Shown in pieces: positions 1 to 62,214 of a DNA stretch of 64,000 nt (positions are counted from its first letter, which is position 1; the number at the start of each line of letters is the position of its first letter). This DNA is from Chrysemys picta bellii (lineage: Eukaryota). The position numbers were made by a program, and so were the translations under genes. The notes beneath the pieces were generated by a model that was not told where the DNA came from, made no database searches, and saw nothing but the letters and a program-made list of their open reading frames with translations. The stretch covers positions 24,986,001-25,050,000 of the forward strand of contig NC_088807.1 in NCBI RefSeq assembly GCF_011386835.1, in the 5' to 3' direction.

Positions 1-272
1 GATGAATACCAAAGACGCCTTGCTGCCACGACCACTGCCCCCGCCATTATCCTCACTACTACTACCACCCCTGTAACACATCCTAATACAGACAATACTA
101 TATACTCTTATGAAACCCAGTGGCCAAGGCCTTTACACCTTAGTGATCCCTATGGGATGGTGCCAATAGTGCAGCAGCAATTTGGAACATTTACAAAGGC
201 CAACAACATGATGAGAAATTAGAGCAACTGGAAAAGGCCACTGGTCTTATTATTGGAGCACAGTTAACCCAG
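1..272 (+). mobile_element. Possible retroviral env-like fragment (degraded)
   Basis: Thr-rich reading (DEYQRRLAATTTAPAIILTTTTTPVT...). After a frameshift it reads [40 protein letters not shown], resembling a fusion-peptide/heptad start. Pattern recognition only. Confidence 0.3.
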
Positions 273-1321
273 AGATCCTCCGCGGTGTCATTTGCAGCGT
301 GAAGAAGGAAGGAGAATGGAAGGTGCTGATCATGGACCACCCCACCATGCGCATCCTCTCGTCGTGCTGCACGATGTCCGACATTGTGGACGAAGGCATC
401 ACGCTTGTGGAAGATATTAATAAGCGCCGGGAGCCAAGCCCCAGCCTGGAGGCCATCTACCTGCTCAGCCCTGTGGAGAAGTCGGTGCAGGCTCTGATCA
501 ATGACGTCCAGGGCACTCCCACTTCACCTACAAGGCGACTCACATCTTCTTCATCAACACCTGTCCTGAGACTCTGTTCAACGAGCTGAGGAAGTCACGG
601 ATCACCAAGGCCATCAAAACCCTCAGGGAGATCAACGTGGTCTTCCTGCCCTTCGAGAGTCAGGTGTACTCCCTGGCAGGGTCATAGACCTTCCACAACT
701 GGTTCAGCCCCTACTGCTTCTTGGAAAAGAACAAGCAGATGGAGATGCTGACAGAGCAGATTGCCACATTGTGTGTAACCCTGAAGGAGTATCCAGCCAT
801 CCTCTACAGGAAGGACCATGAAGATAACTTCCACCTGGTGCACAAAGCCCACTCCCAGCTGCTGATGGTGGATCGGAGCTTCGACCTGGTGTCCGCACTG
901 CTGCACGAGCTCACCTACCAGGCCATGGCCTACGACCTACTCAGCATCGAGAACGGCACCTACAAGTACGAGACAATGGGCATCAGCGACTCGCGGGAGA
1001 AAGTGGCGCTGCTGGACGAAGACGACGAACTCTGGGTGCAGCTACGCCACATGCACATCGCTGACGTCTCCAAGAAGTGAGAGTAAGAGGCTGACCATGG
1101 ACAAGACCAACATCGAGGACCTGTCCCAGATCCTAAAGAAGATGCCACAGTACCAGAAAGAACTGACCAGGTACTCCACGCACCTGAACCTGGCCGAGGA
1201 CTGCATGCGGCACGTCAAAGGGACAGTGGAGAAGCTGTCCATGGGGATGGACGTGGACGGGGAGATGATCAAGGACCCCGTGAAGATCATCGTGCCTGTC
1301 CTGCTGGATCCCATTGTGCCT
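273..1321 (+). pseudogene. STXBP2: Processed pseudogene of syntaxin-binding protein 2 (Munc18-2), 5' exon missing and 3' truncated
   Basis: Intronless match: [80 protein letters not shown] and [10 protein letters not shown] favour STXBP2 over STXBP1. Frameshift near 520, in-frame TAG at 685, internal deletions. Confidence 0.93.
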
Positions 1322-1386
1322 CCAGCGCAACTATCAGTCTTAAACCTCCATGTTCATCAACCCTTGTATTTCTGATTCTAGATCAA

Positions 1387-1878
1387 ATGGTCCTGTTCTG
1401 GGCACTGCACTTCAAGACAGATGTGGTCAAACTGGAGAGAGTCCAGAGGCGAGAGACAGGAAGGAGGAAAGGTTTCGAAAACCTGACCTAGGAGGAATGG
1501 TTAAAAACTCAGGACATGTTTACTCCTGAGAAAAGAAGAACAGTCTTCACATTTGTTCCGGGCTGTTATAATGAGGCCGGGGAATCAGTTGTTCTCCGTG
1601 TTTGCTGAAGGCAGGACAAGAAGTAAAGGGTTTGATCTGCAGCCGGGGGGGATTATGTTCGAGGTTAGGAAAAACTTTTTAACTCTGAGGGTAGTTAAAC
1701 TCCGGAACCGGCTTCCAAGGGAGATTGTGGGATCTCTGGTCATTGGCGGTTTCTAAGAAGAGGTCGGAGAAACACCTGTCAGGGATGGTCTAGGTTTATT
1801 TGGTCCTGCCACCTCACCGGGGGCTGGACTTGATGACGTCTCGAGGTCCTTTCCAGCCCAACGTTTCTATGACTCTAT
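1387..1878 (+). mobile_element. CR1 LINE 3' fragment
   Basis: Degraded ORF2 end (KLERVQRR-like) and a CR1 tail, ggtcctttccagccc...ttctatgactctat. Confidence 0.85.
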
Positions 1879-2560
1879 ATTTCTAATCTCTTTTTTCCCC
1901 TGCCTTCCTCTGAAGCACCGGAGATCAGCCACTGCTGGTTGGCGCTTGGAGCTGGTCCAGGAATCCTCTGTCTAGATGCCTAGCTCTTGGGACATGGGGC
2001 CTTCCTCCCATAGGGGACGCCAGCTCCCATCCAGTCCAAAATCCAACAGCCGTTCCTAGAGACAACAAGGGTTGTTCTCAGTCCGTCAGTGACAATGTGA
2101 GACCCTAACGGCCAGTAGGCCCGTCCTGTCTCTGCACTTCACGGCCCCTTACACACTCGGCCCCTCGGAAGGGGGCTCTGGATGGGACACGGCCCGTCTG
2201 CACCTTCTCCTAACCCTTTGGGATGGGATGGGCTCCTCCACACATCGCTGGAGGGGGGAGTCCCCGTAGAATTGGACCCAGCGATCTGGGGATTGCACCC
2301 CAACCTCTGGGCACCATAATCGGGAGGCGTGTAATGGCTCTAAGCATCTCTCAGAGCTTTGGGCTTGCACCTGGGGGCGAATCTCGGAACTCCGTCCCCT
2401 GGACAATGCCCAGCTTGGAGAGATTGTGGGACAAACGTCCTGTTAATTACCACAAACTCCCACCTCAGCCCGTCAGCCGCTCCGCCTCCACCCCCAGCTG
2501 GTTGGGGGCAGAATTGACGGGGGGGCTTGAAACAGTAGAATTGTTGGGAGACACAATTGA

Positions 2561-5100: not shown

Positions 5101-6260
5101 GGTGAATCCCTCCATGCTTTGCCCATAAAGGGCTCCCAGCCCATCCCAGTCCCTCTCTCTCTCAGCGGGAGGCAATTTTCCTTCCTTCTCTTCAGCCGTC
5201 CCCCTTTCTAATCCCTGCCCTGCTCGGAGGATCCCCCCCATCCGGTTACCCTGTCCCCCTCGGTACCTCTCAGCCACAGCCCCTCCTGCTAGGTCTTCCC
5301 TCCTTTCCCAGGCATGGGGCTCCTCCCCAAACCCCCGGCCCCATGCCCAGTTCCATCTGGGATGGAGGGACCAGTGTTCAGAGCAGGAGGGTGGGCTTCC
5401 CAAAGCTGTCTGGACCATCCCCCTCTCTTCTCTGCCCCAAATATGCAACCCCCGATCATCGCACCCAGCCCTTGGGGCTCTCAGCCACCAACCCCGACGA
5501 GGTGTCCCCGTCCCATCTTTATGGGGATGTTTATTATGGTCCCGGTAGGAGGCTGCAGATGAAATCGCGGTGGGGAGGCTGACACTGAGTGCTGCCAAGA
5601 TCAGGGCCCCCCCTTGTGCCAGGCGCTGCCCAGACCCTGACCGAGATCAGGGCCCCGTCGTGCCGGGCGCTGCCCAGACACACACGGAGAGACTGGCTCT
5701 GCCGTCGAGAGCTCCCAGTCTGAATGCACCGGGGGAAGCAGAGCCCTAGAGCTGGGCAGTAACTTGCCCAGCGTAACCCAGCTGGTCAGTAGCGGAGCTG
5801 CGAATAGAACCCAGGAGTCCTGAGTGCCCGTCCTGCTGTCTGCCCACATCACATTGCCACGCTGCCTCCAGGTCCCTCTGTCATCCCCCTGCCCCAGGCA
5901 TCGCTCCCCCCGGCTTAGTAGCGCCTGCAGATTTAAGTCACCGACCCCTCTTTCCAAAAGGAACCCCGTGAACCCCGCTTTCCTCACCAACGCCTTTCGC
6001 CTGCTAACGTCCCTAAAGATGTGTGTGGATATTGGCTTATTCTTTGCTTCATAGCCTAAACTGTTATGTGGTGTTATGTGCGGCTGTTCCCCAGCTGCCT
6101 CGCCCCAGACGTGGCTGCATCTCTGCGCCAGACCAGCCCTTCCCGAACACCAGACCCTTAACACTAGGAGGAGGCAGTGCCAGCCCCAGCCTGGGCTGAG
6201 GGCACTGGCAGAGGGTCAGGTTCTCACCCACGCTCTCTCCCACAGATCCGTGCCCCCCCC

Positions 6261-7193
6261 ATGGCCGGGCCAAACCGGACAGAGGTTACTGACTTCCTCC
6301 TTGTGGGCTTCTCCTCCCGCCGAGACCTAAGTCTGCTCCTCTTCTCGCTTGTGCTGCCCGTCTTTCTGCTGGGCCTGGCGGGGAACCTGGGCCTGGCGGT
6401 TCTGATCCGGGCCGAGCACTCCCTCCACACCCCCATGTACTACTTCCTCAGCCACTTGGCGCTACTGGACCTCTGCTCCTGCTGTGCCGTGGGCCCCATC
6501 ATGCTGTGGGGTCTGCTGGCCGGCCAGGCCGCCCTCCCCGGCCCAGCCTGCGCCCTTCAGATGTTCCTCTTTGCCGCTGCTGCGGATGCCGAGTGTTGCC
6601 TGCTGGCCGTCATGGCCTACGACCGCTACGCCGCCGTCTGCCGCCCGCTCCACTACCAGGCCGCCGTGCCGCCCCGCCTCTGCCGTGGGCTGGTGCTGGG
6701 CTCCTACGCAGCTGGGGCGGCCAGCGGGGCTGTACACTCCGGCCTGGCCTTCCGCCTTCCCTTCTGCCGCAGCCGCGCCATCAACAGCTTCTTCTGTGAC
6801 ATCCCACCTGTGCTGGAGCTGGCCTGCGCCGACACCAGCCTCAACCAGGCCCTGCTGCTGGCCATCTGTGGAGCCATCCAGAGCGTCACCCTGCTGACCA
6901 TCCTGGCCTCCTACAGGCTCATCCTCGGGGCCGTGGGGCGGGCGGGCTTGCGCCGGGCTGCCTCCACCTGCGGCTCCCACCTGGCAGCTGTGGCTGTGCT
7001 CTACGGGACCCTCATCTTCATGTACCTGCGGCCTGAAGGCAGCTACGCTCCCGAGGCCGACAAGATGGCCGCTGCCTTCTATACCGTGGTCATCCCCACC
7101 CTCAACCCTGCCATCTACAGCCTGCGCAATGCTGATGTCAAGGCGGCCCTGGCCACGTGGCTCTTGGGTGGGCGCCGCATCTGGGGGGGCTGA
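6261..7193 (+). CDS. Olfactory receptor, class II, family 5/8/9-like, 310 aa (OR-A)
   Basis: NRT glycosylation site, LHTPMYYFL, MAYDRYAAVCRPLHY, STCGSHL, PTLNPAIYSLRN. Splice acceptor ctctctcccacAG at 6244-6245 places the start at ATG 6261. Confidence 0.95.
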   Translation: MAGPNRTEVTDFLLVGFSSRRDLSLLLFSLVLPVFLLGLAGNLGLAVLIRAEHSLHTPMYYFLSHLALLDLCSCCAVGPIMLWGLLAGQAALPGPACALQMFLFAAAADAECCLLAVMAYDRYAAVCRPLHYQAAVPPRLCRGLVLGSYAAGAASGAVHSGLAFRLPFCRSRAINSFFCDIPPVLELACADTSLNQALLLAICGAIQSVTLLTILASYRLILGAVGRAGLRRAASTCGSHLAAVAVLYGTLIFMYLRPEGSYAPEADKMAAAFYTVVIPTLNPAIYSLRNADVKAALATWLLGGRRIWGG

Positions 7194-18630: not shown

Positions 18631-21330
18631 TCATTCCTTGGTGAGAATTACACCAAGCCCCTCCAGTTTCACGCCCCCCCTTAGGTTGGGGTGCTTGATG
18701 GCACTCGCAGTTCGCATGTGGGAAGGTTTATGCGGCCTGTGCCCTTTTCCCACCCCCATACCTCTGGGGCTCCAACTGGGCTGTGGTCTTCTCCCAGCGC
18801 TCCAGTCTGGAGGTCTGTGCTTTGGGCTCTCTTGGTTCAGAGCCGCCCTTTTTACCTTGGCCACCCTCCGGAAAGGCTCCTCTATGCTGGGCAAGGGTCC
18901 TAAAGCTGTTTTCCCCTTGTCCCAGGCCTTCCTCCCCCTCTGACAGGGGTCACAGGATCCGCAGTACTGTCGGACAGTAACAAAGACCCCAGGCCAGTAA
19001 AAGCTCCGTAGCAGCCTCTGCTGGGTACGCCAGGTTCCCTGGTGCCCTGAGAGGGGAATGTCATGGGCCTGGTACAGCAGCTGGCGGCGATACTTCTGGG
19101 GTACCACCAGCTGCCTCCTGATCCCCCCTGACTCCATTTTCCCTGGGGGAGCCCATTCTCGGTACAGGAACCCCTTCTCCCACAGGAACCTTTTCCGGCC
19201 ACCTCGTCCCATGGTCTGTACCGCATTGAGGTCGGCCAGGTCCCTTATCTTCCGCAAGGAGGGATCTCTCTGTAACTCGGCCTGGAACTCAGCAGCTGGG
19301 ACAGGGATGGCCACCTGCTCTTTCTCGCCCGCTGGGTCCGAAGCTGCAGCCTCCCTGAGCCGTGTCCCTGGGCGTTCCCTCCCCACCAGGTTAGGGTCCT
19401 GCGCCTCAGGCAAGGCACCCCCCTCAAGGCCAGGGCGCAGTGCCCCTCGCCGGCTCTGACTGCGGGTCACAACTAAGGCGGTCTGGGGGCTGCTTGGCCA
19501 GTCCTCTAGGTCCCCCCCCATCAACACCTCAGTGGGCAAATGGTGGTGCACTCCCACGTCCTTGGGGCCCTCCTTGGCCCCCCATTTCAGGTGTACCCTC
19601 GCTACGGGAACCTTGAATGGGGTCCCGCCCACCCCGGTCAGGGTCAGGAAGGTGTTGGGCACCACCCGATCTGGGGCCACCACCTCGGGCCGGGCCAGTG
19701 TCACCTCTGCGCCCGTGTCCCAGTATCCATAAACTTTCTTCCCATCCACCTCCAGGGGAACAAGGCACTCGCTCCGCAGGGACAGCCCCGCGCCAACCCT
19801 GTAAACGGAGAACTTTGAATCCGGAGCATCTGGCCCCCCAGAGAAGCTGGCCTGGGGCCCTTCTCTTTCTTGAGCAGTTGATAAGCTGCCAGCCCCTCTT
19901 GCGTGAGAAGCCTGCCCCTCGTCCGTCTGGGCCTCTACCAAGTTAACCCGGTGCGGGTTCGGTCTGCTCAGTCTGTCCTTGAGCTTGGGGCACTGGGCCC
20001 GAACGTGGCCTCTTCGGCCGCAGTAATAGCAGCTCAGGTCCCGTGGGTCCCCTCGAGCCGGTCGGTTGTCCCTGATGCTGGGCATTTCCCGGGGGAGGGG
20101 ATTCCCAATATTCCCCCTTTGGGAGGTCCCAGGGTGACTCTCTCTCTGCATCGCGGCGGGCCTGTTCCTTTGGGGCTCCTCCCTGCCACCCCCTGACCGG
20201 CTCTTTACAAACTCATCAGCCAGCTGCCCGGCGTGTCGCGGGTTCTCTGGCTTTCTGTCCACCAACCACAGCCTCAGGTCGGATGGGCACCGCTCATACA
20301 GTTGCTCCAGTACCAGCAGTTTAATCAGGTCCTCCTTCGTCTGGGCCCCACCAGCCCACTTGCTGGCGTATCTTTCCATGCGGGCGGCTAGTTGCAGATA
20401 TGAGATCTCAGGGGTTTTATCCTGACTCCGGAACCTTTCCCGGTACATCTCAGGAGTCAGCCCAAACTCTCGTAGCAGGGCCTTTTTGAATAGTTCGTAG
20501 TCCCCTTTCTCTGCCTCTCCCAGTTGGCGGTACAATGCCACGGATTTGGGGTCCAGTAAGGGGGTAAGGACCCGGAGTCTGTCCGCGGGATCAACCCGGT
20601 GCAGCTCGCAGGCCGTCTCAAAGGCCTCCAGGAAGTCATCCATGTCCTCCCCCTCCTTGTATGGGGCCATGATGCACTTATCAAAGCTCCGTGCAGTCCT
20701 GGGTCCCCCCTCACTCACCGCAGCCGGGGGTTCGCTGCCCTTCAATCTCGCCAGTTCCAGGTCATGCTGACGCTGTCTCTCATTCTCCTCCCGTTCATGC
20801 TGTCTCTGTCTCTCTTCACGCTGATGCTGTCTCTCTTTCTCCTCCCGTTCATGCTGACGCTGTCTCTCTTCATGCTGTCTCTGTTGTTCACGATCCTCCA
20901 GCTCCCTCAGTTTTAGCTCTTTCTCCCATTCCAGCCAATTCCGCTCCACGGATGCCGAACGTCGCCGGGAGGATCCTCTGCTGGCCGGCGGGCTTCGCCG
21001 GGGGGACCCCCTGCTGGCCGGGGGGGTCACGGCGCCTTCGGTATTTGCTGGGCTCCTCCCCACCCTTCCCCTAGGCATAGGAAGGAGGGGTCTCGGGAAG
21101 CCCTCAGCAGCGGGCTGACCACTCCCAGCTGGGACAGACACTGGTGCCTGCGCTGCATTTGCCAGGCTGCTTCCCTGAGACACAGGGATCAGTTCATTCG
21201 CGCGATCTTCCGCCTCCAGCTGGGCAATGAGCTGTTCTTTGGTGAGCCTCCCAATGCGCAGCCGCCTCTGCTTGCACAGCTCCACCAGGTCGCTCTTAAG
21301 CCGCTTGGCATACATCTTCCTGCTGGCCAC
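18631..21330 (-). CDS. Gag (SCAN-like capsid, CCHC knuckle) - aspartic protease - truncated integrase polyprotein
   Basis: Open 899 codons (GTG start; first ATG at 21315). LVLEQL..CPSDLRLWL SCAN-like region, CYYCGRRGHVRAQC, WDTGA, integrase HHCC (AHDIPLSGHQG...CGSCDPC), cut at PFRRVA before the catalytic core; no RT/RNase H. Confidence 0.92.
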   Translation of the reverse strand: MASRKMYAKRLKSDLVELCKQRRLRIGRLTKEQLIAQLEAEDRANELIPVSQGSSLANAAQAPVSVPAGSGQPAAEGFPRPLLPMPRGRVGRSPANTEGAVTPPASRGSPRRSPPASRGSSRRRSASVERNWLEWEKELKLRELEDREQQRQHEERQRQHEREEKERQHQREERQRQHEREENERQRQHDLELARLKGSEPPAAVSEGGPRTARSFDKCIMAPYKEGEDMDDFLEAFETACELHRVDPADRLRVLTPLLDPKSVALYRQLGEAEKGDYELFKKALLREFGLTPEMYRERFRSQDKTPEISYLQLAARMERYASKWAGGAQTKEDLIKLLVLEQLYERCPSDLRLWLVDRKPENPRHAGQLADEFVKSRSGGGREEPQRNRPAAMQRESHPGTSQRGNIGNPLPREMPSIRDNRPARGDPRDLSCYYCGRRGHVRAQCPKLKDRLSRPNPHRVNLVEAQTDEGQASHARGAGSLSTAQEREGPQASFSGGPDAPDSKFSVYRVGAGLSLRSECLVPLEVDGKKVYGYWDTGAEVTLARPEVVAPDRVVPNTFLTLTGVGGTPFKVPVARVHLKWGAKEGPKDVGVHHHLPTEVLMGGDLEDWPSSPQTALVVTRSQSRRGALRPGLEGGALPEAQDPNLVGRERPGTRLREAAASDPAGEKEQVAIPVPAAEFQAELQRDPSLRKIRDLADLNAVQTMGRGGRKRFLWEKGFLYREWAPPGKMESGGIRRQLVVPQKYRRQLLYQAHDIPLSGHQGTWRTQQRLLRSFYWPGVFVTVRQYCGSCDPCQRGRKAWDKGKTALGPLPSIEEPFRRVAKVKRAALNQESPKHRPPDWSAGRRPQPSWSPRGMGVGKGHRPHKPSHMRTASAIKHPNLRGGVKLEGLGVILTKE

Positions 21331-26445: not shown

Positions 26446-27378
26446 TCAGCCCCCCCAGATGCGGCGCCCGCCCAGGAGCCGCTTGGCCAGGGCCCCCTTG
26501 ACATCAGCATTGCGCAGGCTGTAGATGGCAGGGTTGAGGGTGGGGATGACCACGGTATAGAAGGCAGCGGCCATCTTGTCGGCCTGGGGAGCATAGCTGC
26601 CTTCGGGCCGCAGGTACATGAAGATGATGGTCCCGTAGAGCACGGCCACAGCTGCCAGGTGGGAGCCGCAGGTGGAGGCAGCCCGGCGCAAGCCCACCTG
26701 CCCCACGGCCCCAAGGATGAGCCTGTAGGAGGCCAGGATGGTCAGCAGGGTGACGCTCTGGATGGCTCCGCAGATGGCCAGCAGCAGGGCCTGGTTGAGG
26801 CTGGTGTCGGCGCAGGCCAGCTCCAGCACGGACGGGATGATGCAGAAGAAGTGGTCGAGAGTGCGGCCACGGCAGAAGGGAAGGCGGAAGGCCAGGCCGG
26901 AGTGTACAGCCCCGCTGGCCGCCCCGGCCGCGTAGGAGCCCAGCACCAGCCCGCGGCAGAGGTGGGGCGGCACGGCGGCCTGGTAGTGCAGCGGGCGGCA
27001 GATGGCGGCGTAGCGGTCGTAGGCCATGACGGCCAGCAGGCAACACTCGGCATCCGCAGCAGCGGCAAAGAGGAACAGCTGAAGGGTGCAGACTGGGCCG
27101 GGGAGGGTGGCCTGGCCGGCCAGCAGACCCCACAGCATGACTGGGCTCACGGCACAGCAAGAGCAGAGGTCCAGCAGCGCCAAGTGGCTGAGGAAGTAGT
27201 ACATGGGGGTGTGGAGGGAGCGCTCGACCCAGATCAGAACCGCCAGGCCCAGGTTCCCCACCAGGCCCAGCAGGAAGACAGGCAGCGCGAGCGAGAAGAG
27301 GAGCAGACTTAGGTCTCGGCGGGAGGAGAAGCCCACAAGGAGGAAGTCAGTAACCTCTGTCCGGTTTGGCCCGGCCAT
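26446..27378 (-). CDS. Olfactory receptor, class II, family 5/8/9-like, 310 aa (OR-B)
   Basis: Same motifs as OR-A; acceptor at 27393-27394; open frame. Confidence 0.95.
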   Translation of the reverse strand: MAGPNRTEVTDFLLVGFSSRRDLSLLLFSLALPVFLLGLVGNLGLAVLIWVERSLHTPMYYFLSHLALLDLCSCCAVSPVMLWGLLAGQATLPGPVCTLQLFLFAAAADAECCLLAVMAYDRYAAICRPLHYQAAVPPHLCRGLVLGSYAAGAASGAVHSGLAFRLPFCRGRTLDHFFCIIPSVLELACADTSLNQALLLAICGAIQSVTLLTILASYRLILGAVGQVGLRRAASTCGSHLAAVAVLYGTIIFMYLRPEGSYAPQADKMAAAFYTVVIPTLNPAIYSLRNADVKGALAKRLLGGRRIWGG

Positions 27379-27979
27379 GGGGGAGCACAGATCTGTGGGG
27401 AGAGAGCGTGGGTGAGAACCTGCCCCTCTGCCAGTGCCCTCAGCCCAGGCTGGAGCTGGCACTGCCTCCTCCTAGCGTCAAGGGTCTGGTGTTCGGGGAG
27501 GGCTGGTCTGGCGCAGAGATGCAGCCACCTCTGGGGCACGGCAGCTGGGGAACAGCTACACATAACGCCACACAACAGTTTAGGCTACGAAGCAAAGAAT
27601 AAGCCAACATCCACACACATCTTTAGGGACGTTAGCAGGCGAAAGGCGTTGGTGAGGAAAGCGGGGTTCACGGGGTTCCTTTTGGAAAGAGGGGTCGGTG
27701 ATTTAAATCTGCAGGCGCTACTAAGCCGGGGGGAGCGATGCCTGGGGCAGGGGGATGACAGAGGGACCCGGAGGCAGCGTGGCAATGTGATGTGGGCAGA
27801 CAGCAGGACGGGCACTCGGGACTCCTGGGTTCTAGTCGCAGCTCCGCTACTGACCAGCTGGGTTACGCTGGGCAAGTTACTGCCCAGCTCTAGGGCTCTG
27901 CTTCCCCCGGTGCATTCAGACTGGGAGCTCTCGAGGGCAGAGCCAGTCTCTCCCTGTGTGTCTGGGCAGCGCCTGGCAT

Positions 27980-39684: not shown

Positions 39685-41718
39685 CTGTGTCAAAAGCCTT
39701 ACTAAGGCTTATATGTCCCAGGCGGTTTGGTTTCTCGGTGCAGCGATGGGAACAGCGCCATGAGAAAGGAGCCATCTTGCACAACTGAATCGGTGAATGA
39801 ATGAGCCTTTAAATGGCTGCTTCTGGGGGTGCAGTCGTGCCCCATTGCCCTGTTGAAAGGGATTTCCGGTGATTGTGTCCGAATCCTGTCTCCAGTGATC
39901 ATGGACCTTCCAAAGTGGCAGTTAGGGCAGTTGGCCAGACCCCTCCCCCCAGGCAGAATGGGACCTTCCAAAGTGGCAGTTATGGCAGTTGGCCAGACCC
40001 CTCCCCGCAGGCAGAATGGGACCTTCCAAAGTGGCAGTTATGGCAGTTGGCCAGACCTCTCTCCACAGGCAGAATGGGACCTTCCACCAAAGACCTTCCA
40101 AAGTGGCAGTTATGACTCTTTGCCATTTCATCTCCTTTCTCCTGTCCCTACTCAGTGAAATGGTTCGTTCCATCAGTTGGGCACTTTGGGGCTTCTCTCT
40201 CCCTTGGAAGAGACCATTTCACAGGCAGGAGGGTGCAGGGGTTAAGTTATCTGGACAAGTGCATTGGATGTATTTTTCCCTGTCAGGAAATGTATAATAA
40301 TACTGCCCCCCCCCCCACACACACATCTGTCATGTGAATGGCTCCTTTTCAGTCTGAGGGGTTAAAAAGCCTGAGTCCGTGATAATTCTCCATCTCCCCC
40401 CCCCAGGGGAAAAATGGTCTGTCCCAAGCCCAAAAAGTGGTGGAGGGGGAGTAAACACAGCCCAAATGGTGGGGGAGGGGGGAAGGAAACATAGCCCAAA
40501 TGGTGGGGGAGGGGGAGTAAACACAGCCCAAATGGTGGAGGAGGGGGAAGGAAACGCAGCCCAAATGGTGTAGGAGGGGGGAAGGAAACGCAGCCCAAAT
40601 GGTGGGGGAGGGGCAGTAAATACAGCCCTATATGGCGGGGGAGGGGCGCACTCTCAGCCCTAGAGGACGGGAGAACAAGGGGAAATGGCTCCCAAAGATG
40701 AGCCTACGTGTGGCCGTGAAGAGAGGTAGCTTGTAGGAAAGGTGTCCCCTACTGCCAAGGCCAGAAAGGCCGATTGGGCTCATCCCGTCATCTCCCCGGC
40801 CCCGCCCCCATATGGCCCAGGCCCTAGGACGGCCCTGGGTTCATTTCTGTTTGAACCACAGCCGATGTTTTAGACAAACACCCTTGGTCCATAGGGTTGA
40901 GAGATCCGAGCCGTCGGCCGGCAGCACGTCAGGGGGAGTGAGTGATTGCTGGACCCAGACTAGAAGGAGACTAGTCTGTAAAAGGAAGTTTACTGGGTGA
41001 GGTTTTTATCTGTATTCAGTTTCTTAGACATAGACTTGCGTGTTCTATTTTATTTTGCTTGGTAATTCACTTTGTTCTGTCTGTTACTACTTGGAACCAC
41101 TTAAATCCTACTTTCTGTATTTAATAAAATCATTTTTACTTACTAATTAACCCAGAGTATGTATTAATACCTGGGGGGGGAGGGCAAACAGCTGTGCATA
41201 TCTCTCTATCAGTGTTATAGAGGGCGAACAATTTCTGAGTTTACCTTGTATAAGCTTTATACCGGGTAAAACGGATTTATTTGGGGCTTGGACCCCATTG
41301 GGAGTTGGACACCTGGGTATTAAAGACAGGAACACTTCTGTACGTTGCTTTCAGTTAAGCCTACAGCTGTCGGGGACGTGGTTCAGACCCTGGGTCTGGG
41401 TTTGCAGCAGGCTAGCGGGTCTGGCTTAAACCAGGCAGGGCACGAAGTCCTAAGCTGCCAGGGCAGGAAAGCAGGGGCAGACGTAGTCTTGGAACATCAG
41501 TTGGCAGCCCCAAGGGGGTTTCTGTGATCCAGCCCGTCACACCACGTACTGGGCAGCTGGTGTTTGAAACAAAGGAAGCAGAGGCCGCGTGGCAAGAGTC
41601 TATAAAAGGCAGCTGCATCTTCTCTATTTTGTCTTCAATCCTGCTCCTGACCTCTGGAGGGACTTGGCTACCAACTGAAGCTCTGAACAAAGGACTGAAG
41701 GACCCATCTCAGCTGGGG

Positions 41719-43713
41719 ATGTATTCCAGAGACTTGATTCGAGCCTTTAAGTTAAAGATGCATGAGCTGTCGGAGGCCTGTATTCCCAAAAAGGGAAAAA
41801 GATTACCAAGCAAGAGATTTAGACCGAGCTGGATGAGCGACCGACTCAAAGGGGCGATTAGGAAAAAACAGAAAGCGTACAAAGAGTGGAAGAGGGGAGG
41901 GATCAGTAAGGAAATGTACCAAAGTGAAGTCAGAGAATGTAGAGATAGAGTGAGAAAGGCCAAAGGCCGTGTAGAATTGGACCTAGCGAGGGGAATTAAA
42001 AGCAATAGTAAGAGGTTTTACAGCCACATAAACAGGAAGAAAGCAAAGAAAGAAGAAGTGGGACCGCTGAAGACTATTGCCGGAGAGGAGATTAAAGACA
42101 ATCTAGGCATGGCGCAATATCTCAATGAATATTTTGCGTCGGTGTTTAATGAGGCCAATGAAGGGATTAGGGATACTAGCACCATTACAGAGGGGCGTTC
42201 GGGATGGGGGATTACTGTATCCGAGGTAGAAACAAAACTTGAACGCCTTAATGGGGCTAAGTCGGGAGGACCGGACGATCTTCATCCGAGAATATTGAAG
42301 GAATTGGCGCGGGAAATAGCAGGCCCGTTAGCGATAATATTTAATGAATCTGTAAACTCGGGGGTGGTCCCGTTAGACTGGAGAATAGCTAATGTGGTTC
42401 CTATTTTCAAAAAAGGGAAAAGAAGTGATCCGGGTAACTACAGGCCTGTTAGTTTAACATCTGTAGTGTGCAAGGTGTTAGAGAAAATTTTGAAGGAGAA
42501 ATTAGTTGAGGACCTGGAGGGTAGTGGCAATTGCGATAATTTACAACATGGTTTTACGAAGGGCAGATCGTGCCAAACGAATCTGATCTCCTTCTTTGAG
42601 AAAGTAACGGATTTATTAGATAAGGGAAATGCGGTGGACCTAATATACCTGGATTTCAGTAAAGCGTTTGATACTGTACCCCATGAGGAATTATTGGTTA
42701 AACTGAAAAACATGGGGATCGATTTGAAAATCCAGAGATGGATAAGGAATTGGTTAATGGGGAGAATGCAGCGGGTCGTATTGAAGGGTGAACTGTCAGG
42801 TTGGAGGGAGGTTACCAGTGGAGTTCCCCAAGGTTCAGTTTTGGGACCCATTTTATTTAATCTATTTATAACTGACCTCGGAACCGATTGCAGGAGTAGG
42901 CTGGTAAAGTTTGCGGATGATACGAAGGTGGGAGGCGTTGTAAATTCGGAAGAGGATAGGGATATCCTGCAGGGAGACTTGAATGAGCTTGTGAATTGGA
43001 GTGTCAGAAATAGGATGAAATTTAATAGTGAAAAGTGTAAGGTGATGCATTTGGGGATGACCAATAACAATTTTAGTTACAAGATGGGGACGCATTGGTT
43101 AGAAGTAACGGAAGAGGAGAAGGACCTAGGGGTCCTTGTAGACCGTAGGATGACTATGAGTCGACAGTGTGACGTGGCGGTGAAAAAAGCCAATGCTGTC
43201 TTGGGATGCATTAGGCGAGGTATATCTAGTAGGGATAAGGAGGTCCTGCTTCCGTTGTACAAGGCGCTGGTGAGACCTCATTTGGAGTACTGTGTGCAGT
43301 TCTGGTCTCCCATGTTTAAAAAAGATGAACTCAAACTGGAACGGGTGCAGAGAAGGGCCACTAGGATGATCAGAGGAATGGAAAACCTGTCGTATGAAAG
43401 GAGACTAGAGGAGCTTGGGTTGTTTAGTCTGACAAAGCGAAGGCTGAGGGGGGATATGATTGCTATCTTTAAATATATTAGAGGGATTAATACAAGGGAG
43501 GGAGATGAATTATTCCAGCTTAGTACTAACGTGGATACGAGAACGAATGGATATAAACTGGCCGTGGGGAAGTTCAGGCTTGAAATTAGACGAAGGTTTC
43601 TGACCGTTAGAGGGGTGAAATATTGGAACGGCCTTCCGAGGGAAACGGTGGGGGCAAGGGACTTGTCTGGCTTTAAGATTAAGTTAGATAAGTTTATGGA
43701 GGGAATGGTTTAA
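41719..43713 (+). CDS. CR1 ORF2 reverse transcriptase frame without endonuclease (664 aa from a flanking ATG)
   Basis: No stops; NYRPVSLTS, QHGF, YLDFSKAFD, GVPQGSVLGP, KFADD motifs; the ATG at 41719 comes from the host LTR. Confidence 0.8.
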   Translation: MYSRDLIRAFKLKMHELSEACIPKKGKRLPSKRFRPSWMSDRLKGAIRKKQKAYKEWKRGGISKEMYQSEVRECRDRVRKAKGRVELDLARGIKSNSKRFYSHINRKKAKKEEVGPLKTIAGEEIKDNLGMAQYLNEYFASVFNEANEGIRDTSTITEGRSGWGITVSEVETKLERLNGAKSGGPDDLHPRILKELAREIAGPLAIIFNESVNSGVVPLDWRIANVVPIFKKGKRSDPGNYRPVSLTSVVCKVLEKILKEKLVEDLEGSGNCDNLQHGFTKGRSCQTNLISFFEKVTDLLDKGNAVDLIYLDFSKAFDTVPHEELLVKLKNMGIDLKIQRWIRNWLMGRMQRVVLKGELSGWREVTSGVPQGSVLGPILFNLFITDLGTDCRSRLVKFADDTKVGGVVNSEEDRDILQGDLNELVNWSVRNRMKFNSEKCKVMHLGMTNNNFSYKMGTHWLEVTEEEKDLGVLVDRRMTMSRQCDVAVKKANAVLGCIRRGISSRDKEVLLPLYKALVRPHLEYCVQFWSPMFKKDELKLERVQRRATRMIRGMENLSYERRLEELGLFSLTKRRLRGDMIAIFKYIRGINTREGDELFQLSTNVDTRTNGYKLAVGKFRLEIRRRFLTVRGVKYWNGLPRETVGARDLSGFKIKLDKFMEGMV

Positions 43714-46182: not shown

Positions 46183-47115
46183 TCAGCCCCCCCAGATGCG
46201 GCGCCCACCCAGGAGCCACTTGGCCAGGGCCCCCTTGACATCAGCGTTGCGCAGGCTGTAGATGGCAGGGTTGAGGGTGGGGATGACCACAGTATAGAAG
46301 GCAGCGGCCATCTTGTCGGCCTGGGGAGCATAGCTGCCTTCGGGCCGCAGGTACATGAAGATGATGGTCCCGTAGAGCACGGCCACAGCTGCCAGGTGGG
46401 AGCCGCAGGTGGAGGCAGCCCGGCGCAAGCCCGCCCGCCCCACGGCCCCGAGGATGAGCCCGTAGGAGGCCAGGATGGTCAGCAGGGTGACGCTCTGGAT
46501 GGCTCCGCAGATGGCCAGCAGCAGGGCCTGGTTGAGGCTGGTGTCGGCGCAGGCCAGCTCCAGCACGGACGGGATGATGCAGAAGAAGTGGTCGAGAGTG
46601 CGGCCGCGGCAGAAGGGAAGGCGGAAGGCCAGGCCAGAGTGCACGGCCGCACTGGCCGCCCCGGCCGCATAGGAGCCCAGCACCAGCCCGCGGCAGAGGC
46701 GGGGCGGCACGGCGGCCTGGTAGTGGAGCGGGCGGCAGACGGCGGCGTAGCGGTCGTAGGCCATGACGGCCAGCAGGCAACACTCGGCGTCCCCCGCGGT
46801 GGCGAAGAGGAACATCTGAAGGGCGCAGACTGGGCCGGGGAGGGCGGCCTGGCCGGCCAGCAGACCCCACAGCATGATGGGGCCCACGGCACAGCAGGAG
46901 CAGAGGTCCAGCAGTGCCAAGTGGCTGAGGAAGTAGTACATGGGGGTGTGGAGGGAGCGCTCGACCCAGATCAGAACCGCCAGGCCCAGGTTCCCCACCA
47001 GGCCCAGCAGGAAGACGGGCAGCGCGAGCGAGAAGAGGAGCAGACTTAGGTCTCGGCGGGAGGGGAAGCCCACAAGGAGGAAGTCGGTCACCCCTGTCCG
47101 GTTTGGCCCGGCCAT
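46183..47115 (-). CDS. Olfactory receptor, class II, family 5/8/9-like, 310 aa (OR-C)
   Basis: Duplicate of OR-B with 16 amino-acid differences; open frame. Confidence 0.95.
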   Translation of the reverse strand: MAGPNRTGVTDFLLVGFPSRRDLSLLLFSLALPVFLLGLVGNLGLAVLIWVERSLHTPMYYFLSHLALLDLCSCCAVGPIMLWGLLAGQAALPGPVCALQMFLFATAGDAECCLLAVMAYDRYAAVCRPLHYQAAVPPRLCRGLVLGSYAAGAASAAVHSGLAFRLPFCRGRTLDHFFCIIPSVLELACADTSLNQALLLAICGAIQSVTLLTILASYGLILGAVGRAGLRRAASTCGSHLAAVAVLYGTIIFMYLRPEGSYAPQADKMAAAFYTVVIPTLNPAIYSLRNADVKGALAKWLLGGRRIWGG

Positions 47116-49200
47116 GGGGGGGCACGGATCTGTGGGGAGAGAGCGTGGGTGAGAGCCTGCCCCTCTGCCAGTGCCCTCAGCCCAGGCTGGGGCTGGCACT
47201 GCCCTCTCCTAGTGTCAAGGATTTGGTGTTCGGGGAGGGCTGGTCTGGCGCAGAGATGCAGCCACGTCTGGGGCACGGCAGCTGGGGAACAGCTACACAT
47301 AACGCCACACAACAGTTTAGGCTACGAAGCAAAGAATAAGCCAACATCCACACACATCTTTAGGGACGTTAGCAGGCGAAAGGCGTTGGTGAGGAAAGCG
47401 GGGTTCACGGGGTTCCTTTTGGAAAGAGGGGTCAGTGATTTAAATCTGCAGGCGCTACTGAGCCGGGGGGAGCGATGCCTGGGGCAGGGGGATGACAGAG
47501 GGACCTGGAGGCAGCGTGGCAATGTGATGTGGGCAGACAGCAGGACGGGCACTCGGGACTCCTGGGTTCTATTCGCAGCTCCGCTACTGACCAGCTGGGT
47601 TACGCTGGGCAAGTTACTGCCCAGCTCTAGGGCTCTGCTTCCCCCGGTGCATTCAGACTGGGAGCTCTCGACGGCAGAGCCAGTCTCTCCCTGTGTGTCT
47701 GGGCAGCGCCTGGCATGACAGGGGGCCCTGATCTCAGTCAGGGTCTGGGCACCACCTGGCACGACAGGGGGCCTGATCTCAGTGGGGGTCTGGGCAGCGC
47801 CTGGAACAACGGGGGCCTGATCTCGGTCGGGGTCTGGGCAGCGCCCGTCACGACAGGGGGCCTGATCTCAGTTGGGGTCTGGGCAGCGCCTGTCACGACG
47901 GGGCCCTGATCTCAGTCGGGGTCTGGGCAGCGCCCGGCACAACAGGGCCCTGATCTGTGCAGCACTTAGTGCAACGTGCCCGTCCCCCCACCCCCCCAAG
48001 TCATCTGCAGCCTCCTAGTGGTACCATAATACACATCCCCCTAAAGTGTGGCGGGACATAGTCCCCAGCCTGGCTCTTCGATGGGACAGGGACTCCTGCT
48101 CGGGGTTGGTGACTGAGAGCCCCAAGGCCCGGGTGTGATCGGGGACACACAGTCGGAGCAGAGGAGAAAGGGGGATGGTCCAGACAGCTTTTGGGAGCCC
48201 CACCCTGCCCTGAACACTGATCCCTCCCAGACTGAACTGAACACACAGGGGCGCGGCGGGGGGGGGGGCGGAGGGGTTCAGAGAGGAGCCCCAGGCCCGA
48301 CAGAGGAGAGAAGGACTAACACAGGGGGGCTGAGGCTGGGAGGTACCAAGGGAGGTGGAGTAATCGCTGAGGGCATCCCCCGAGAAGGGCGGGTTTTAGA
48401 CAGGGGGACAGCTAAAGAGAACGAAGGAAAATTGCCTCCTGCTGAGAGATAGAGGGACTGGGAGCCCTGTATGGGCAAAGCGTGGAGGGATTCACCACTG
48501 AGAACCCAGGAGTCCTGGCTCCCAGTCCCCTCTTCTCTCATCCACCAGACCCCACTCCCCTCCCGGAGCCAGGGAGAGAACCCAGGAGTCCTGGCTCCCA
48601 GCCCCCCTGCTCTAACCCACCAGACCCCACTCCCCTCCTGGAGCCAGGGAGAGAACCCAGGAGTCCTGGCTCCCAGCCCTCCCTGCTCTAATGACAGGAC
48701 CCCACTCCCCTCCCAGTGCTGGGGAGAGAACCCAGGGGTCCTGGCTCCCAGCTCCCCGCTGCTCTAACCATTAGCCCCCACTCCCCTCCCCGAGCCAGGG
48801 ACAGAACCCAGGCATCCTGGCTCCCACTGATTGTGGCTGGACAGCCCCCTGACCAGAGGAGGAGGTGATGGGGGTCAGTGCGGAGGGGGTGTCCCTACCC
48901 GGGAATGGCCCCGTGTCCCGTCTCTACCCCACGGCACCCGCCCTACCTGGGCAGCGGCAGGGTCTGCGTCTCTCTTGGTGCCGGTGCCTGCTGCTTTCCA
49001 CCCGGGCGGCGCCGGGGCTTTTATGGCCCCTTTCCCCGGCATCCACGAGTCCTCCCCTGGCACCGACTCCCAAGGCTCCTGCCTGAGCCAATCTCCACCG
49101 TGCCAGCCGGGCCCCGCAGACGGAGGGGCTGGGCGCTCATCACCCCCCGGCTCCTGCCCGCAGGGAGTCAGACGCAGGCAGCTAATCGCACGGGAAATTG

Positions 49201-56770: not shown

Positions 56771-57709
56771 TCACGCACTCCGAGCCAGGACCTTCCTCCT
56801 TGCCCTCCTCAGGGCCACGGCCACGTCCTTGTTCCTCAGACTGTAGATGAGGGGGTTCAGGGCGGGCGCCACCGCTGTGTAGAAGATGGCCACCTGCCGG
56901 TCACGCTCCTGGGAATAGCTGGAGGCCGGGCGGAAATAGAGCCAGGCCACGGTGCCATAAAAGAGCATCACCACTGTCAGGTGGGAGCCGCAGGTGGAGA
57001 GGGCCTTGCGCAGGCCGTGGGCAGAGCGCAGGCGGCCCACAGTGACCCCGATGCGGGCGTAGGAGGCCAGGATGAAGACGAAAGGGGCCAGCACCACCAG
57101 GACACCTTCGGTGAAGGCAGCCAACTCGTTGGAGAAGGGCCGGGTGCAGGAAAGGTGCAGCAGGGGCGGCAGGTCGCAGAAGAAGTGCTGCAGGCGGCGG
57201 CTGCAGTAGCGCAGCCGGGCGGCCATGACTGTGTGCAGCAGGGAGTGGGGGATCACCACGGCCCAGGAGACGGCGGCCATCTTGAGGCAAAGGGGCCGCG
57301 TCACCACGGTGGCATAGCGCAGCGGGTTGCAGATGGCCACGTAGCGGTCATAGGCCATGGCAGCCAGCAGGTAGCCCTCCATGTTGCCCACAGCCATGAA
57401 GATGAAGAGCTGGGCCATGCAGCTGGCGAAGGGGACGGCCCGGCGCTGGGTCAGGGCGTGCACCAGGGCCTGAGGCAAGGTGATGGAGGCGAAGCTCACA
57501 TCCACCACGGCCAGCTGGCTGAGGAGGAAGTACATGGGGCTGCGGAGCTGGGGGTCAGCCCACACCGCCCCAAGCAGCAGAGAGTTGCCAGCTAGGTTCA
57601 CCAGATATGTGGTCAGGAGCCCTGCGAAGATCAGCGGCTGCAGGTCCTGACGTTCAGACAGACCCAGGAGCACAAACTCGGAGACGGACGTCCAGTTGGC
57701 ATCGTCCAT
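56771..57709 (-). CDS. Olfactory receptor, class II, family 1-like, 312 aa (OR-D)
   Basis: MDDANWTSVSEFVLLGLS, LRSPMYFLL, MAYDRYVAICNPLRY, HFFCD, KALSTCGSHL, PALNPLIYSLRN; strong acceptor ctcccttctcctccctgctcAG at 57731-57732; Kozak caccATGg. Confidence 0.96.
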   Translation of the reverse strand: MDDANWTSVSEFVLLGLSERQDLQPLIFAGLLTTYLVNLAGNSLLLGAVWADPQLRSPMYFLLSQLAVVDVSFASITLPQALVHALTQRRAVPFASCMAQLFIFMAVGNMEGYLLAAMAYDRYVAICNPLRYATVVTRPLCLKMAAVSWAVVIPHSLLHTVMAARLRYCSRRLQHFFCDLPPLLHLSCTRPFSNELAAFTEGVLVVLAPFVFILASYARIGVTVGRLRSAHGLRKALSTCGSHLTVVMLFYGTVAWLYFRPASSYSQERDRQVAIFYTAVAPALNPLIYSLRNKDVAVALRRARRKVLARSA

Positions 57710-58762
57710 GGTGAGGGACCACAGTGGCACCTGAGCAGGGAGGAGAAGGGAGTTGCCAGTGATGTAACACGCTGACGAATTATGCCAGCCCTCTTTGAAT
57801 AATGGTTTAACAGCGCGATCTTGTTTTAAAGTTGTTCCACATTGGAGACTCCAACCCTCACTAAGTTCTGCTCACGGTTACTGACCCTCGCTGTTAAAAA
57901 TTTACACCTTACGTCTTGTCTGAATTTGTCTAGCTTCGACTTCCAGACACTGGCACTCAGTATTCCTTTGTCTACCAGACTGATACTCTATGACACTGGC
58001 AAACCAAGCGCTTGCTCTTGCCAAGACAGCAGGCAAAAGCTAAGGACTAACAAACTCATAGCTGGAGGCTAAAGCAGTTCATCTGTATGGTAGTTTTGCT
58101 CAAAACAGGGGTTAGTCTCATAAGAATGTATTTGGCGTTTCGACTCTATGTAACTCTTGTAAATTGCTGCTGGCATTAATCTCACTTACAATGTTGGTAT
58201 TCCGAGCTATAAAAAAATATGTATGTTTTGTTTTATAGAAAATGTTTGCTCTGAACTTGGGAACCCTCCCCGCCACCCATCCAGAAGGACTATCCAGATC
58301 AGATGGGCCACCAAGGACCATTGCAATGCAATGGATTGGTTAATGGCCCTGTCACACCTTCGAAATGCTACGTGCAAGAAGGTTTGTCCTGGGGTCTCAG
58401 AAGCTGAATGAAGGAAATAAAACAAAGTAATGGGAAAATCATCCATCTCTTTGCCGTTTGAACTCCGACAGGGCCAGAGACACCAAACTGAAGCCAGAGA
58501 TCCCCAGGGGTTACCTCTTGGGTCTGCCCTGAAAGACACTTTGAAGGGACAGATCTCTACAAGTTGGTCACTCACAGGATTTCAATGACAACTCATTGAT
58601 GTGTATGTATTTGCTCACTTTAACCTGTGAACAACTCTCTTCTTTCTTTTTCCTAGTTAATAAACCTTTATTCCGGGGTGGTTACAGGCGTTGTCTTTGG
58701 GGACTGGAAGCAACCTGAATGTGGCAGGATTTTTGGTGGAAGTGGTCATTGATCACTATAGA

Positions 58763-59187: not shown

Positions 59188-59199
59188 ACTACAGACCTC

Positions 59200-60150
59200 A
59201 AGATGTTATCAAGTCCAGCCCCTGGTGCTGTGGCAGGGCCTAGTAAACCTAGACCATCCCTGACAGGTGTTTGTCTGGCCTCTTCTTAGAAACCTACAAT
59301 GACTAGAGATCCCACTATTGGAAGCCGGCTCCGGAGTTTAACTATCTTCAGAGTTAGAAAGTTTTTCCTAACCTCTAACCTAAACCTCCCTTGTTGCAGA
59401 TTATGTGGACATGGAGAAAAATGGAGTCCCGTCCTCATTATAACAGCCCATAACAAATGTAAAGACTGTTCTTCTTTTCTCAGGACTAAACATGCCCTGT
59501 TTTTTTAACCCTCTCTCCTAGGTCAGTTTTCTAAACCTTTCCTCATTCCTGTTGCTCTCCTCTGGACTCTCTCCAGTTTGACCACATCTTTCTTGAAGTG
59601 TAGTACCCAGAACCGGACACAATACTCCATCTGAGACCTCACCAGTGCTAAGTAGGGTGGGACAGTTACATCCTGTGTCTGATATACAACACTCCTATTA
59701 ACACGCCCCAGAATATTAGCCTTTTTTCACAGCTGTTTCACTTTGTTGACTCACTTTGGTGAGTCAACATTTTCCCCATTTTCTAGCTGCGCTTTTGACT
59801 TTCCCTGCCCTAAGTGAAGTACTTTGCACTTGTCATATTTTCAGTGCCACCTTGTTGAATTCAGACTGATTCTCTGATTTGTTGAGGTGGCTTCGAATTT
59901 GCATCCTGGCCTACAAAGTGCTTGCAACCCCTCCCAGCTTGGGGTCAGCTGTACATTTCATAAGTGCACCCTCCACTCCATTATCTAAGTCATTAATGAA
60001 AATATTGACTAGTCCCGGACCCTGGACTGACCCCTGCAGGACTCCGGTAGATACGCCTTCCCAGTTTGACTGAGAACCATGAAAACTACTCTTTGAAGAC
60101 AGTCTTTTGGCCAGTTGTACACCTACCTTATAGTAATTTCATCTAGACTA
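59200..60150 (-). mobile_element. Degraded CR1 ORF2 fragments
   Basis: Antisense CR1 motifs (gcttgcaacccctcccagctt, ttaacccctctctccta); boundaries approximate. Confidence 0.7.
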
Positions 60151-61329
60151 CACTGGGGGGGGGATAACTTCCTGACCACTTCAGATGACCAACTGAAGCC
60201 TGAAGCATGAGATTGCATTCTAGTCATTGTTATAATACTGAGCTCCAAGTGTTACAGGCATGCCAAGGGAAATGCAGGTAATTCTGTTCTCTGCAAGACC
60301 CATGAAGGGGTGAAAAGGGGATTCATAGAGTCCAAGGCGAGACAGGAGGGAGGTTCTGAAATAATCTTCCACTTGGAAAACAGCCTAACTGGTGTTAATG
60401 GGGCCCGCAATTCAAGAAGGAGGTTGGCCAGTTGGAAAGGGTTCCGAGAAGAGCCCTGGAAATGATTGAAGGATTGGAAAACCTGCCTGACAGTGAGAGA
60501 TGTAAGGAGCTCGAGCTCTTTAGCTGAACAAAGAGAAGGTTAAAGGGTGACTCGATCCCAGTCTAGAAGTACCGACATGGGGAACAATCATTTGAATAAT
60601 GGGCTCTTTGATCTAGCAGAGAACGGTCTAACCCAATCCAGGGGCTGGGAGTTGAAGCTAGACACGGCGGCTGTGATAACCTGGACTTGAGTCCACGAGT
60701 CAGGAGGGGACCTGTAGGAAAACCCTAGATACCACAAGATTCGGGGTAAAGTTCATGAGAGTCACACCATGGCGAGCACATTGCTGCATATTTCCAAGCA
60801 TGCTCAGCTGCTACACAGGATGTCCGGAAAACCTACCCAACAGGGGCTCAGTCTGCTTAGTTCATCGAAGAGCCGGCGAAGACGGGACTTGGTACCAGTT
60901 TGGAAACATGCTCGCAGCCCTTCGCCCGCATCTGGATCCTGCCTGCAGCCCTGGGCCCTCTCAGCACCACACGGAAAATGCAGAATGACCAGGGGCTTGG
61001 GGACAGGTCAGGCTCTGGGAAAACTCTCCTGTAAAGAGAGGCAAGAAAGATCAGGGTTGCGTAAAGCATAAGAGGGAGAATGACACAACGAAAATGGGAC
61101 CGAGAAAAGAGCTTGGGGGATTCTGTCGTCCCTGTCGCATGGCACAGGAACAAGGAGACAGCCCATGAACTTACAGTGAGAAATTCAAAAGACACTCTCG
61201 CACTCAGGGACTGTGGAACTCACTGCCATAGGATGGTGTTGAGGCTAAAACCTAGCAAGATTCAAAGAGGAAGTGGACATTTCCAAAGGGAAGAGGAACA
61301 TGCAAAGTTAGATTCTCTCAAACTAACTA

Positions 61330-61550
61330 AAAAGCAACAGAGGGTCCTGTGGCACCTTTAAGACTAACAGAAGTATTGGGAGCATAAGCTTTCGTGGGTA
61401 AGAACCTCACTTCTTCAGATGGCATCTGAAGAAGTGAGGTTCTTACCCATGAAAGCTTATGCTCCCAATACTTCTGTTAGTCTTAAAGGTGCCACAGGAC
61501 CCTCTGTTGCTTTTTACAGATTCAGACTAACACGGCTACCCCTCTGATAC
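61330..61550. mobile_element. Penelope-like palindromic insertion carrying two divergent hammerhead motifs
   Basis: ~92-bp arms around a 1-nt spacer at 61422, one mismatch; TSD tcaaactaacta(a) 61318-61329 and 61551-61562. Confidence 0.92.
61422..61462 (+). ncRNA. Minimal hammerhead ribozyme motif (Penelope type)
   Basis: GCAU CUGAAGA A GUGAGGUUCUUACCCAU GAA AGCU U AUGC; mirror copy on the minus strand at 61382-61421. Confidence 0.7.
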
Positions 61551-62214
61551 TCAAACTAACTAAACGTTGTGGAAGGGATATTAAACCTCATGCTTCAGGG
61601 AGGTGAGAAACCTCTAGCTACAAGTGGTCAGGAGGGAATTTCACATGGGCTGTGTGTGCAGATCCCCACCTTCTTCTTCAGGTTCTTATTATACCTGCTG
61701 ACACAGCTTGTGAGACTGGCCCGAGCCGGGGATGGATTCTGTATGAGAGGGGGATTATTCTGACCCAGTCTGGGCATTTCTACACCAGATCCACCACTTT
61801 CAACTCACACACAAGCACCATCATTCCTGATCAATCTTTGATGGCCAGCAAAGGGCTCTGATTTTGTCTCCTCCAACCCAACCTTTCCCTCAAAAAATTT
61901 CCACCCGCACAAGTCAGAAATTTCCCATCAGATGGATTTCCCCTTCCCCTCCGTAGGTGGAAAACTATTTATTTTTTTCAACAAAATGGGAAACGTCCCA
62001 CCTTTACGGAAAATCCCCAGATTGCCCTCGAAAAAGCCCAACGCTGTTCTCAGTTTGGGGCCGGCAAACCCCTAAAATTTTAGGCTAAAATCGTGAAAAA
62101 AATATCTTTGGATTTTCAGGAATTTGTCTTTCTTTCCAGGGGCTATTAAGGGCAGAGTTGCCCACATGTATGAATGAGCATGGAGCTCTAATGAAGCAAG
62201 CCCCTTTATTAAAT

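Follow-up and report, generated by a model that had tools for sequence, protein, structure and literature searches.

A defective provirus in the genome of Chrysemys picta bellii carries exons 2–14 of an STXBP2-like gene, without introns, joined to a truncated ERV env at what is most likely a splice junction. The locus straddles the left edge of the window, by which we mean the 64,000-nucleotide stretch analysed (contig NC_088807.1, positions 24,986,001 to 25,050,000, forward strand; assembly size, 2.37 Gb). We consider it likely that transcription from a provirus read through into an STXBP2-like gene, that splicing joined exon 2 to a cryptic donor within env, and that the chimeric RNA was reverse-transcribed with helper enzymes and integrated. 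STXBP2 is needed for secretion by killer lymphocytes.

The captured segment spans window positions 273–1319 on the forward strand, with all of the introns between exons 2 and 14 absent (12/12). Its best solved-structure match is human Munc18-2 (E 5e-42; Pfam Sec1), and within the genome it is closest to an intact gene at C22:21.6 Mb (1,047 nt at 92.45% identity) whose exons 1–14 have GT–AG ends and an open frame. Exon 2 occupies 273–322, followed by exon 3 (to 404), exon 4 (to 481), exon 5 (to 559), exon 6 (to 663), exon 7 (to 812), parts of exons 8 (to 841) and 9 (to 965), exon 10 (to 1073), part of exon 11 (to 1105), exon 12 (to 1171) and parts of exons 13 (to 1238) and 14 (to 1319). The original prediction that homology starts at the first base of exon 2, with intron 1 splitting a Lys codon, agrees with all 16 genomic exon 2 copies and with a host exon 1 ending in GAGA/gt (the slash marks the boundary here and below). 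Homology also stops within the coding sequence and without poly(A), as had been noted; the end lies at 1319, 51 nt short of the end of exon 14. The insert has one stop in the host frame and four internal deletions (1, 63, 26 and 21 nt), of which the 63- and 21-nt deletions span exon–exon joints and so postdate splicing. A second copy of the insert (copy A) lies 3.08 kb upstream and is 98.9% identical to the copy in the window (copy B). A search for other copies of the chimera, as had been proposed, yielded this tandem copy and no further processed or chimeric copy in the assembly; the exact junction pattern matched twice genome-wide and, with one mismatch allowed, 24 times against 22 in a control.

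Contigs from sequencing runs bridge the 5′ joint (runs X1, X6 and X8) and the complex 3′ joint (X1 and X6), and pieces without introns were recovered from runs labelled organisms A to E, one of which may be the source of the assembly itself. In two runs contig depth over the insert was several-fold that of the flanks, a hint only, given that contig depth is a poor measure of copy number. A 479-nt contig from RNA run X15 spans the insert-specific 63-nt deletion; DNA carry-over is possible and we do not count it as expression. One contig of run X8, over L021:6993-7242, bridges the chimeric joint; its env part carries eight differences and its 5′ end is unrelated sequence, so that it represents either a divergent additional copy in organism B or a mosaic of the assembly graph.

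The insert sits inside a defective provirus that retains a full 5′ LTR, a tRNA-His primer site, a gag-like start, integrase and the 5′ part of env. The LTR (G000:C17:24978921-24979346, equal to L021:2921-3346), found upstream where the original prediction had called for one to be sought, has a TATA box and a poly(A) signal, and the 18-nt primer site is the complement of the tRNA-His 3′ end encoded in this genome, with CCA added. Integrase pieces match rve (E 5e-10) and MLVIN_C (E 5e-18; best solved structure, 2m9u), the MLV-type integrase C terminus being a feature of class I (gamma/epsilon-like) ERVs. No RT motif was found in the provirus or, for the siblings scanned, in their same-strand part; a helper would therefore have been needed. 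Bases 1–272 of the window (forward strand) were correctly recognized as env and correspond to sequence that siblings carry between integrase and the polypurine tract. Positions 147–272 are the start of a TM-like region, just before which long-env siblings have a furin-like RKKR site, and a deletion of ~600 nt of env at 145–147 recurs in a subfamily of empty copies and in the closest 11 of the 28 sibling loci examined. To the left of the window the env remnant runs on into integrase, tandem copy A, gag, the primer site and the 5′ LTR. Beyond the donor, env (~1.2 kb in siblings) is gone save for an inverted 78 bp, perhaps in part through later deletion. The host sequence stands in place of internal ERV sequence and does not interrupt a continuous element.

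The ERV family comprises at least about 320 copies with a tRNA-His primer site and the MLV-type integrase end. The viral part of the locus is 7–15% diverged from its siblings, and its LTR is 75–80% like the LTRs of the closest internal-region siblings, with better LTR relatives of up to 89%. The viral part keeps 37–39 CpG against 15–22 in six of eight siblings, whereas the other two, aligned over only ~0.5 kb, show no CpG difference; this hints that the provirus entered later than those six, and local base composition could also explain it. Long env TM regions occur elsewhere in the family (L146:8147-9457, L078:6996-8141 and L171:5864-6919). Three sibling frames (352–437 aa) gave no Pfam family for the env TM, a gamma-type one included, and Atlas leads for the sibling TM point to F-type fusion proteins at 0.86–0.89, below the reliable range (<0.9).

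A paralogous host segment without the provirus (59194–63644, reverse strand) serves as a proxy for the empty site. Its homology to the locus stops at the first bases of the LTR, giving a clean host–LTR junction at which a full, U3-containing LTR starts where flank homology ends; this argues for integrase and against LINE copying of an LTR-started RNA. The provirus lies within a cluster of duplicated olfactory-type receptor units. Open single-exon receptor frames are found at window positions 6168–7193, 26446–27471, 46183–47208 and 56771–57871; the three scanned match Pfam 7tm_4 (olfactory receptor) and 7tm_1, and the fourth is a close repeat of the second. The window also contains an 899-aa frame with SCAN, zinc-knuckle and integrase zinc-binding matches (18631–21330, reverse strand; LTR-element-like) and a 765-aa frame with a reverse transcriptase (41416–43713, forward strand).

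The 5′ joint carries the argument for splicing. At the base matching 272, empty ERV copies read AACCCAG/GTACAG, so that the CAG at 270–272, rightly suspected to be the exon side of a donor, is followed in them by GT exactly at the breakpoint. GT comes next in 18 of 23 distinct non-chimeric contexts, the remaining five being two G>A variants, two one-base-deletion variants and one rearranged copy. A 19-letter pattern searched genome-wide gave 324 matches ending in G, not inspected one by one, and 13 ending in another base, namely the two chimeric copies, seven G>A variants that continue in env and four chance matches with no ERV upstream. These last four were the only apparent further host captures at this donor among the pattern matches; being strict, the pattern overlooks diverged copies as well as exons with G as their first base. 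On the host side, the base matching 273 is preceded by a pyrimidine tract and CAG in 16/16 genomic exon 2 copies (cag/AGATC; cgcag/AGATCC in the host gene). Since exon 1 ends in A and the ERV in G, ERV and spliced mRNA have not one base in common at the joint, and this zero overlap makes a splice the most likely origin of the junction. The donor matches the consensus at −3 to +3 only, lacking it at +4 to +6, and its use as a cryptic env donor is our reading of these sequences. One sibling of 6,058 nt contains 342 GT, 8 MAG/GTR and 2 CAG/GTA sites. The chance of meeting an exon start is ~1.0% (13 in 1,246 nt) and that of meeting GT 5.6% (342 in 6,058 nt), giving a calculated product of ~6e-4 for both breakpoints falling on splice sites by chance, or ~1e-5 if MAG/GTR sites are used (8 in 6,058).

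At the other end, what is visible is not a capture junction but a later inversion-plus-deletion. Positions 1314–1391 correspond to 78 bp from the 3′ region of the ERV, which in empty copies directly precede the polypurine tract and here lie on the opposite strand (83–94% identity to sibling ERVs); a search of this sequence for ERV similarity, as had been proposed, thus finds it in reverse orientation. The piece overlaps exon 14 by TGTGC and joins, with a 2-nt overlap, the 3′ part of an older repeat (1390–1885, forward strand), which we take to be CR1-like. The repeat was cut on its 5′ side by a deletion, the paralogous unit having more of its 5′ sequence; in the paralog 3,943 bp separate the integration point from the repeat breakpoint, a distance that insertions private to the paralog may have lengthened. 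A search of 114 kb (50 kb to the left plus the window) revealed no second LTR. The rearrangement removed the 3′ capture joint, the polypurine tract, the 3′ LTR, the target-site duplication and up to 3.9 kb of flank, and the inverted piece from before the polypurine tract indicates that a viral 3′ end once lay downstream of the insert in cis. Of the originally proposed 3′ template switch, the end of homology without poly(A) stands, but its position at 1319 reflects the later rearrangement, so that we infer the switch rather than observe it.

Between its two copies the tandem unit of 1,574 nt shows one indel and 17 substitutions (16 transitions, 8 of them at CpG). Copy A stops 36 nt short of the end of copy B and there abuts, almost without overlap, ERV sequence from upstream of integrase, a junction for which no bridging contig was found among those listed, and the first unit has a 1.44-kb deletion at an ACCT repeat. 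This deletion and the ~600-nt env deletion were considered as splice events and rejected, their ends lying on short repeats (ACCT and GAT) and not on GT–AG. At a rate of 0.5–2e-9 per site per year, the 1.1% difference between copies would place the duplication between a few and ~10 million years ago.

The donor was probably an early duplicated STXBP2-like gene that has since been lost, converted or left unassembled. The insert and the family of duplicated STXBP2-like genes have derived states in common, among them three amino-acid changes encoded in exon 3 at residues where the human protein equals the intact gene. In trees rooted on the intact gene (rows covering <60% of each part excluded), the insert groups as sister to the duplicate family over exons 2–8 (bootstrap 98, 16 rows); over exons 9–14 its sister is the C12 copy, with weak support (bootstrap 66, 13 rows). 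It stands on a private branch of ~5%, against ~1% between the tandem copies, and no present-day gene in the assembly is closer to it than 92.5%. STXBP2 itself has expanded by segmental duplication, with 16 intron-bearing exon 2 copies (93–98%) among loci on G000:C22 (8.39, 9.09, 9.19, 9.25, 19.31, 19.54, 21.60, 22.55, 23.20 and 23.42 Mb), at C20:6.17 Mb, on C12 (17.6 and 29.2 Mb) and on many small contigs, some of which may be haplotigs. Five full-length duplicates have a host frame that is stop-free over exons 1–14 (projected) and have amino-acid changes in common away from the human and intact-gene state. Intron 1 is 25.1 kb long in the intact gene (G000:C22:21.602-21.627 Mb) and about 2.0–2.2 kb in the duplicates.

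The source provirus was sought beside these genes. The suggestion that an ERV might still lie in STXBP2 intron 1 was not borne out: no member of the provirus family was found in the 25-kb intron of the intact gene, and no sense provirus upstream of the 16 exon 2 copies over the 0.3 to 41 kb of upstream sequence covered (<4 kb for several unplaced contigs). Two nearby ERVs were rejected as the source. The provirus at C12:29.197-29.206 Mb belongs to a long-env subfamily and is 70–84% identical to the carrier provirus, and exons 2–4 of the neighbouring STXBP2-like copy are absent from the 100 kb examined; the ERV at C22:23.43 Mb is antisense. The C12 element (G000:C12:29197462-29205691) has two LTRs (97% identity), keeps the same GT donor and lies in sense orientation 10 kb before exon 5 of its STXBP2-like neighbour.

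The captured sequence is neither open nor selected. An open env frame spans 147–302. Because env is broken in phase 0 at the donor and exon 2 starts in phase 1, this frame ends nine codons into exon 2 at a TGA (300–302, forward strand) that is also present in the host exon; the insert has frameshifts as well. Changes common to both copies and found in no paralog comprise 29 non-synonymous and 7 synonymous differences (775 and 218 sites), a pN/pS of 1.17 (P = 0.84 against neutrality) from which 33 of 69 shared changes with the same base in a paralog were excluded. Shared changes are transversion-rich (39:30) compared with those between the copies (16:1); we rejected this spectrum as proof of viral replication, as comparisons between the host gene and its paralogs are equally transversion-rich (for example, 58:43). 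Being out of frame, broken and neutral, the insert is a passenger and not an oncogene-like capture, and the provirus copy is likely to be without function today. The likeness to retroviral oncogene capture drawn in the original prediction accordingly extends to the mechanism but not to the fused, neutral product.

These observations can be ordered as follows. A short-env provirus without RT would have lain in sense orientation in intron 1 or upstream of a duplicated STXBP2-like gene. Read-through transcription would then have allowed the env CAG/GT to be joined to the exon 2 acceptor with removal of introns 2–13, an event whose junction survives. The RNA would have been packaged with a helper RNA, and reverse transcription would have switched back to the viral 3′ end. 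Integration at the present locus left a full 5′ LTR that begins exactly at the end of host flank homology. A ~1.6-kb stretch was duplicated in tandem, whether while the RNA was being reverse-transcribed or once in the genome, and the first unit lost 1.44 kb, both at times that can only be placed tentatively, as can the 3′ inversion-deletion that stripped the original 3′ junction, the 3′ LTR and adjoining flank; the outcome is a neutral passenger.

A more far-reaching reading is that the chimera formed a transducing virus lineage, packaged and dependent on a helper, which replicated over several rounds, perhaps in another individual or species, before it entered the germ line. The absence of both donor gene and source provirus, the ~5% private branch, the four deletions, the roughly twofold CpG content relative to six of eight siblings and the high contig depth over the insert in two runs keep this viable, but we consider it unlikely, given that there is one locus only, that it evolved neutrally with its joint out of frame, and that the donor shows no second capture. 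If true, the locus would be a reptile fossil of a natural, splice-made transducing virus carrying part of a killer-lymphocyte secretion gene.

Four other routes to the locus can be considered. Reverse transcriptase could have moved, by a double template switch, between ERV RNA and a co-packaged STXBP2-like RNA retaining intron 1. CAG stands on both sides of the joint, in the ERV and in the intron 1 acceptor, no provirus at the gene is required (and none was found), and switching guided by microsimilarity is the published route of LTR retrocopies (PMC5131818). This would nevertheless need a partly spliced template, a landing on the single acceptor CAG and a GT next in the ERV by chance (5.6% of positions), and the overlap with fully spliced mRNA is zero against a median of 6 bp given there; we regard it as improbable. 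Trans-splicing of ERV RNA with STXBP2-like pre-mRNA, the provirus not being beside the gene, predicts the same joint and fits the lack of an adjacent sense provirus. Trans-splicing is rare, however, and the donor gene itself is seemingly absent from the assembly, and a somatic or lost provirus accounts for the absence equally; it seems to us somewhat more improbable than the double switch.

A provirus might also have integrated empty and acquired an env–STXBP2 cDNA, made elsewhere, by later recombination through env homology. The mosaic look of the element, whose LTR is only 75–80% like those of its closest internal-region siblings, and the lack of dispersed chimeric copies favour this, yet the splice joint is needed all the same, LTR relatives of up to 89% exist, and no empty allele occurs among the contig joints listed for seven runs (contigs cannot show absence). 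We place it a shade below the double switch and above trans-splicing. Least probable of all, and very improbable indeed, is an ordinary 5′-truncated LINE retrocopy inserted by chance into a resident provirus. The original prediction had found no LINE hallmarks, and indeed there is no poly(A), the 5′ end is exon-exact and env does not resume anywhere downstream; the 3′ end that would carry poly(A) or a target-site duplication has since been deleted, which works in favour of a LINE. Such an insertion would require truncation exactly at an exon start and integration just before a GT donor, a coincidence of ~6e-4 or less. Read-through and splicing from a provirus into an STXBP2-like gene remains the reading that we prefer.

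Most of what is known of retroviral gene capture comes from tumour viruses; in the papers considered here, captures by endogenous elements are described as template-switch overlaps or whole mRNAs. At the turtle locus the 5′ joint is of splice type and preserved to the base, and >300 empty family members provide a control; the locus supports capture by read-through splicing in nature without oncogene selection. It also offers a simple screen, an ERV GT donor joined to the start of a host exon. The copy being dead, its value is mechanistic and evolutionary, not functional.

The closest tumour-virus counterpart is ALV at c-erbB, where a cryptic donor within env was presumably used as well. There, promoter insertion leads through read-through and splicing to gag–env–erbB transcripts, in which env is spliced onto an internal host exon and the host 5′ exon is lost, as in the turtle (PMC3186009); oncogene capture follows promoter insertion (PMC4276931). 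Unlike ALV c-erbB, the turtle locus is a germline fossil with an out-of-frame, neutral fusion, and its host gene is a vesicle-fusion regulator and not a proto-oncogene. LTR-mediated retroposition (Tan et al. 2016, PMC5131818), which includes the capture of FAM8A1 by HERV-K, likewise replaces internal ERV sequence with partial, intron-free host coding sequence lacking poly(A) and L1 hallmarks. Its joints are microsimilarity switches (25/29 in fly), whereas the turtle 5′ joint has splice sites and zero mRNA overlap, a contrast that rests on the main text, since the supplementary tables could contain splice-type cases. Among reptiles, CrocERV31 (nectin3) and CrocERV29 (KIT ligand) are crocodilian captures (Chong et al. 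2014, PMC4299795), and CrocERV31 resembles the turtle locus in being a reptile ERV that gained host mRNA at the expense of env. According to the main text, in which the word 'splice' is absent, these have six and nine copies with open frames under purifying selection; the turtle capture is a single locus with a partial, broken coding sequence and no sign of selection. The available text of PMC13297096 has nothing on junction mechanism. Searches of the available literature returned no ERV–STXBP2 capture and no turtle ERV gene capture. A vertebrate-wide survey of host-gene capture by ERVs may include this locus. The locus thus belongs with ERV/LTR-mediated retrocopies, set apart by its splice-type 5′ joint, its single occurrence and the absence of selection, and fits neither a selected transducing virus nor a LINE retrocopy.
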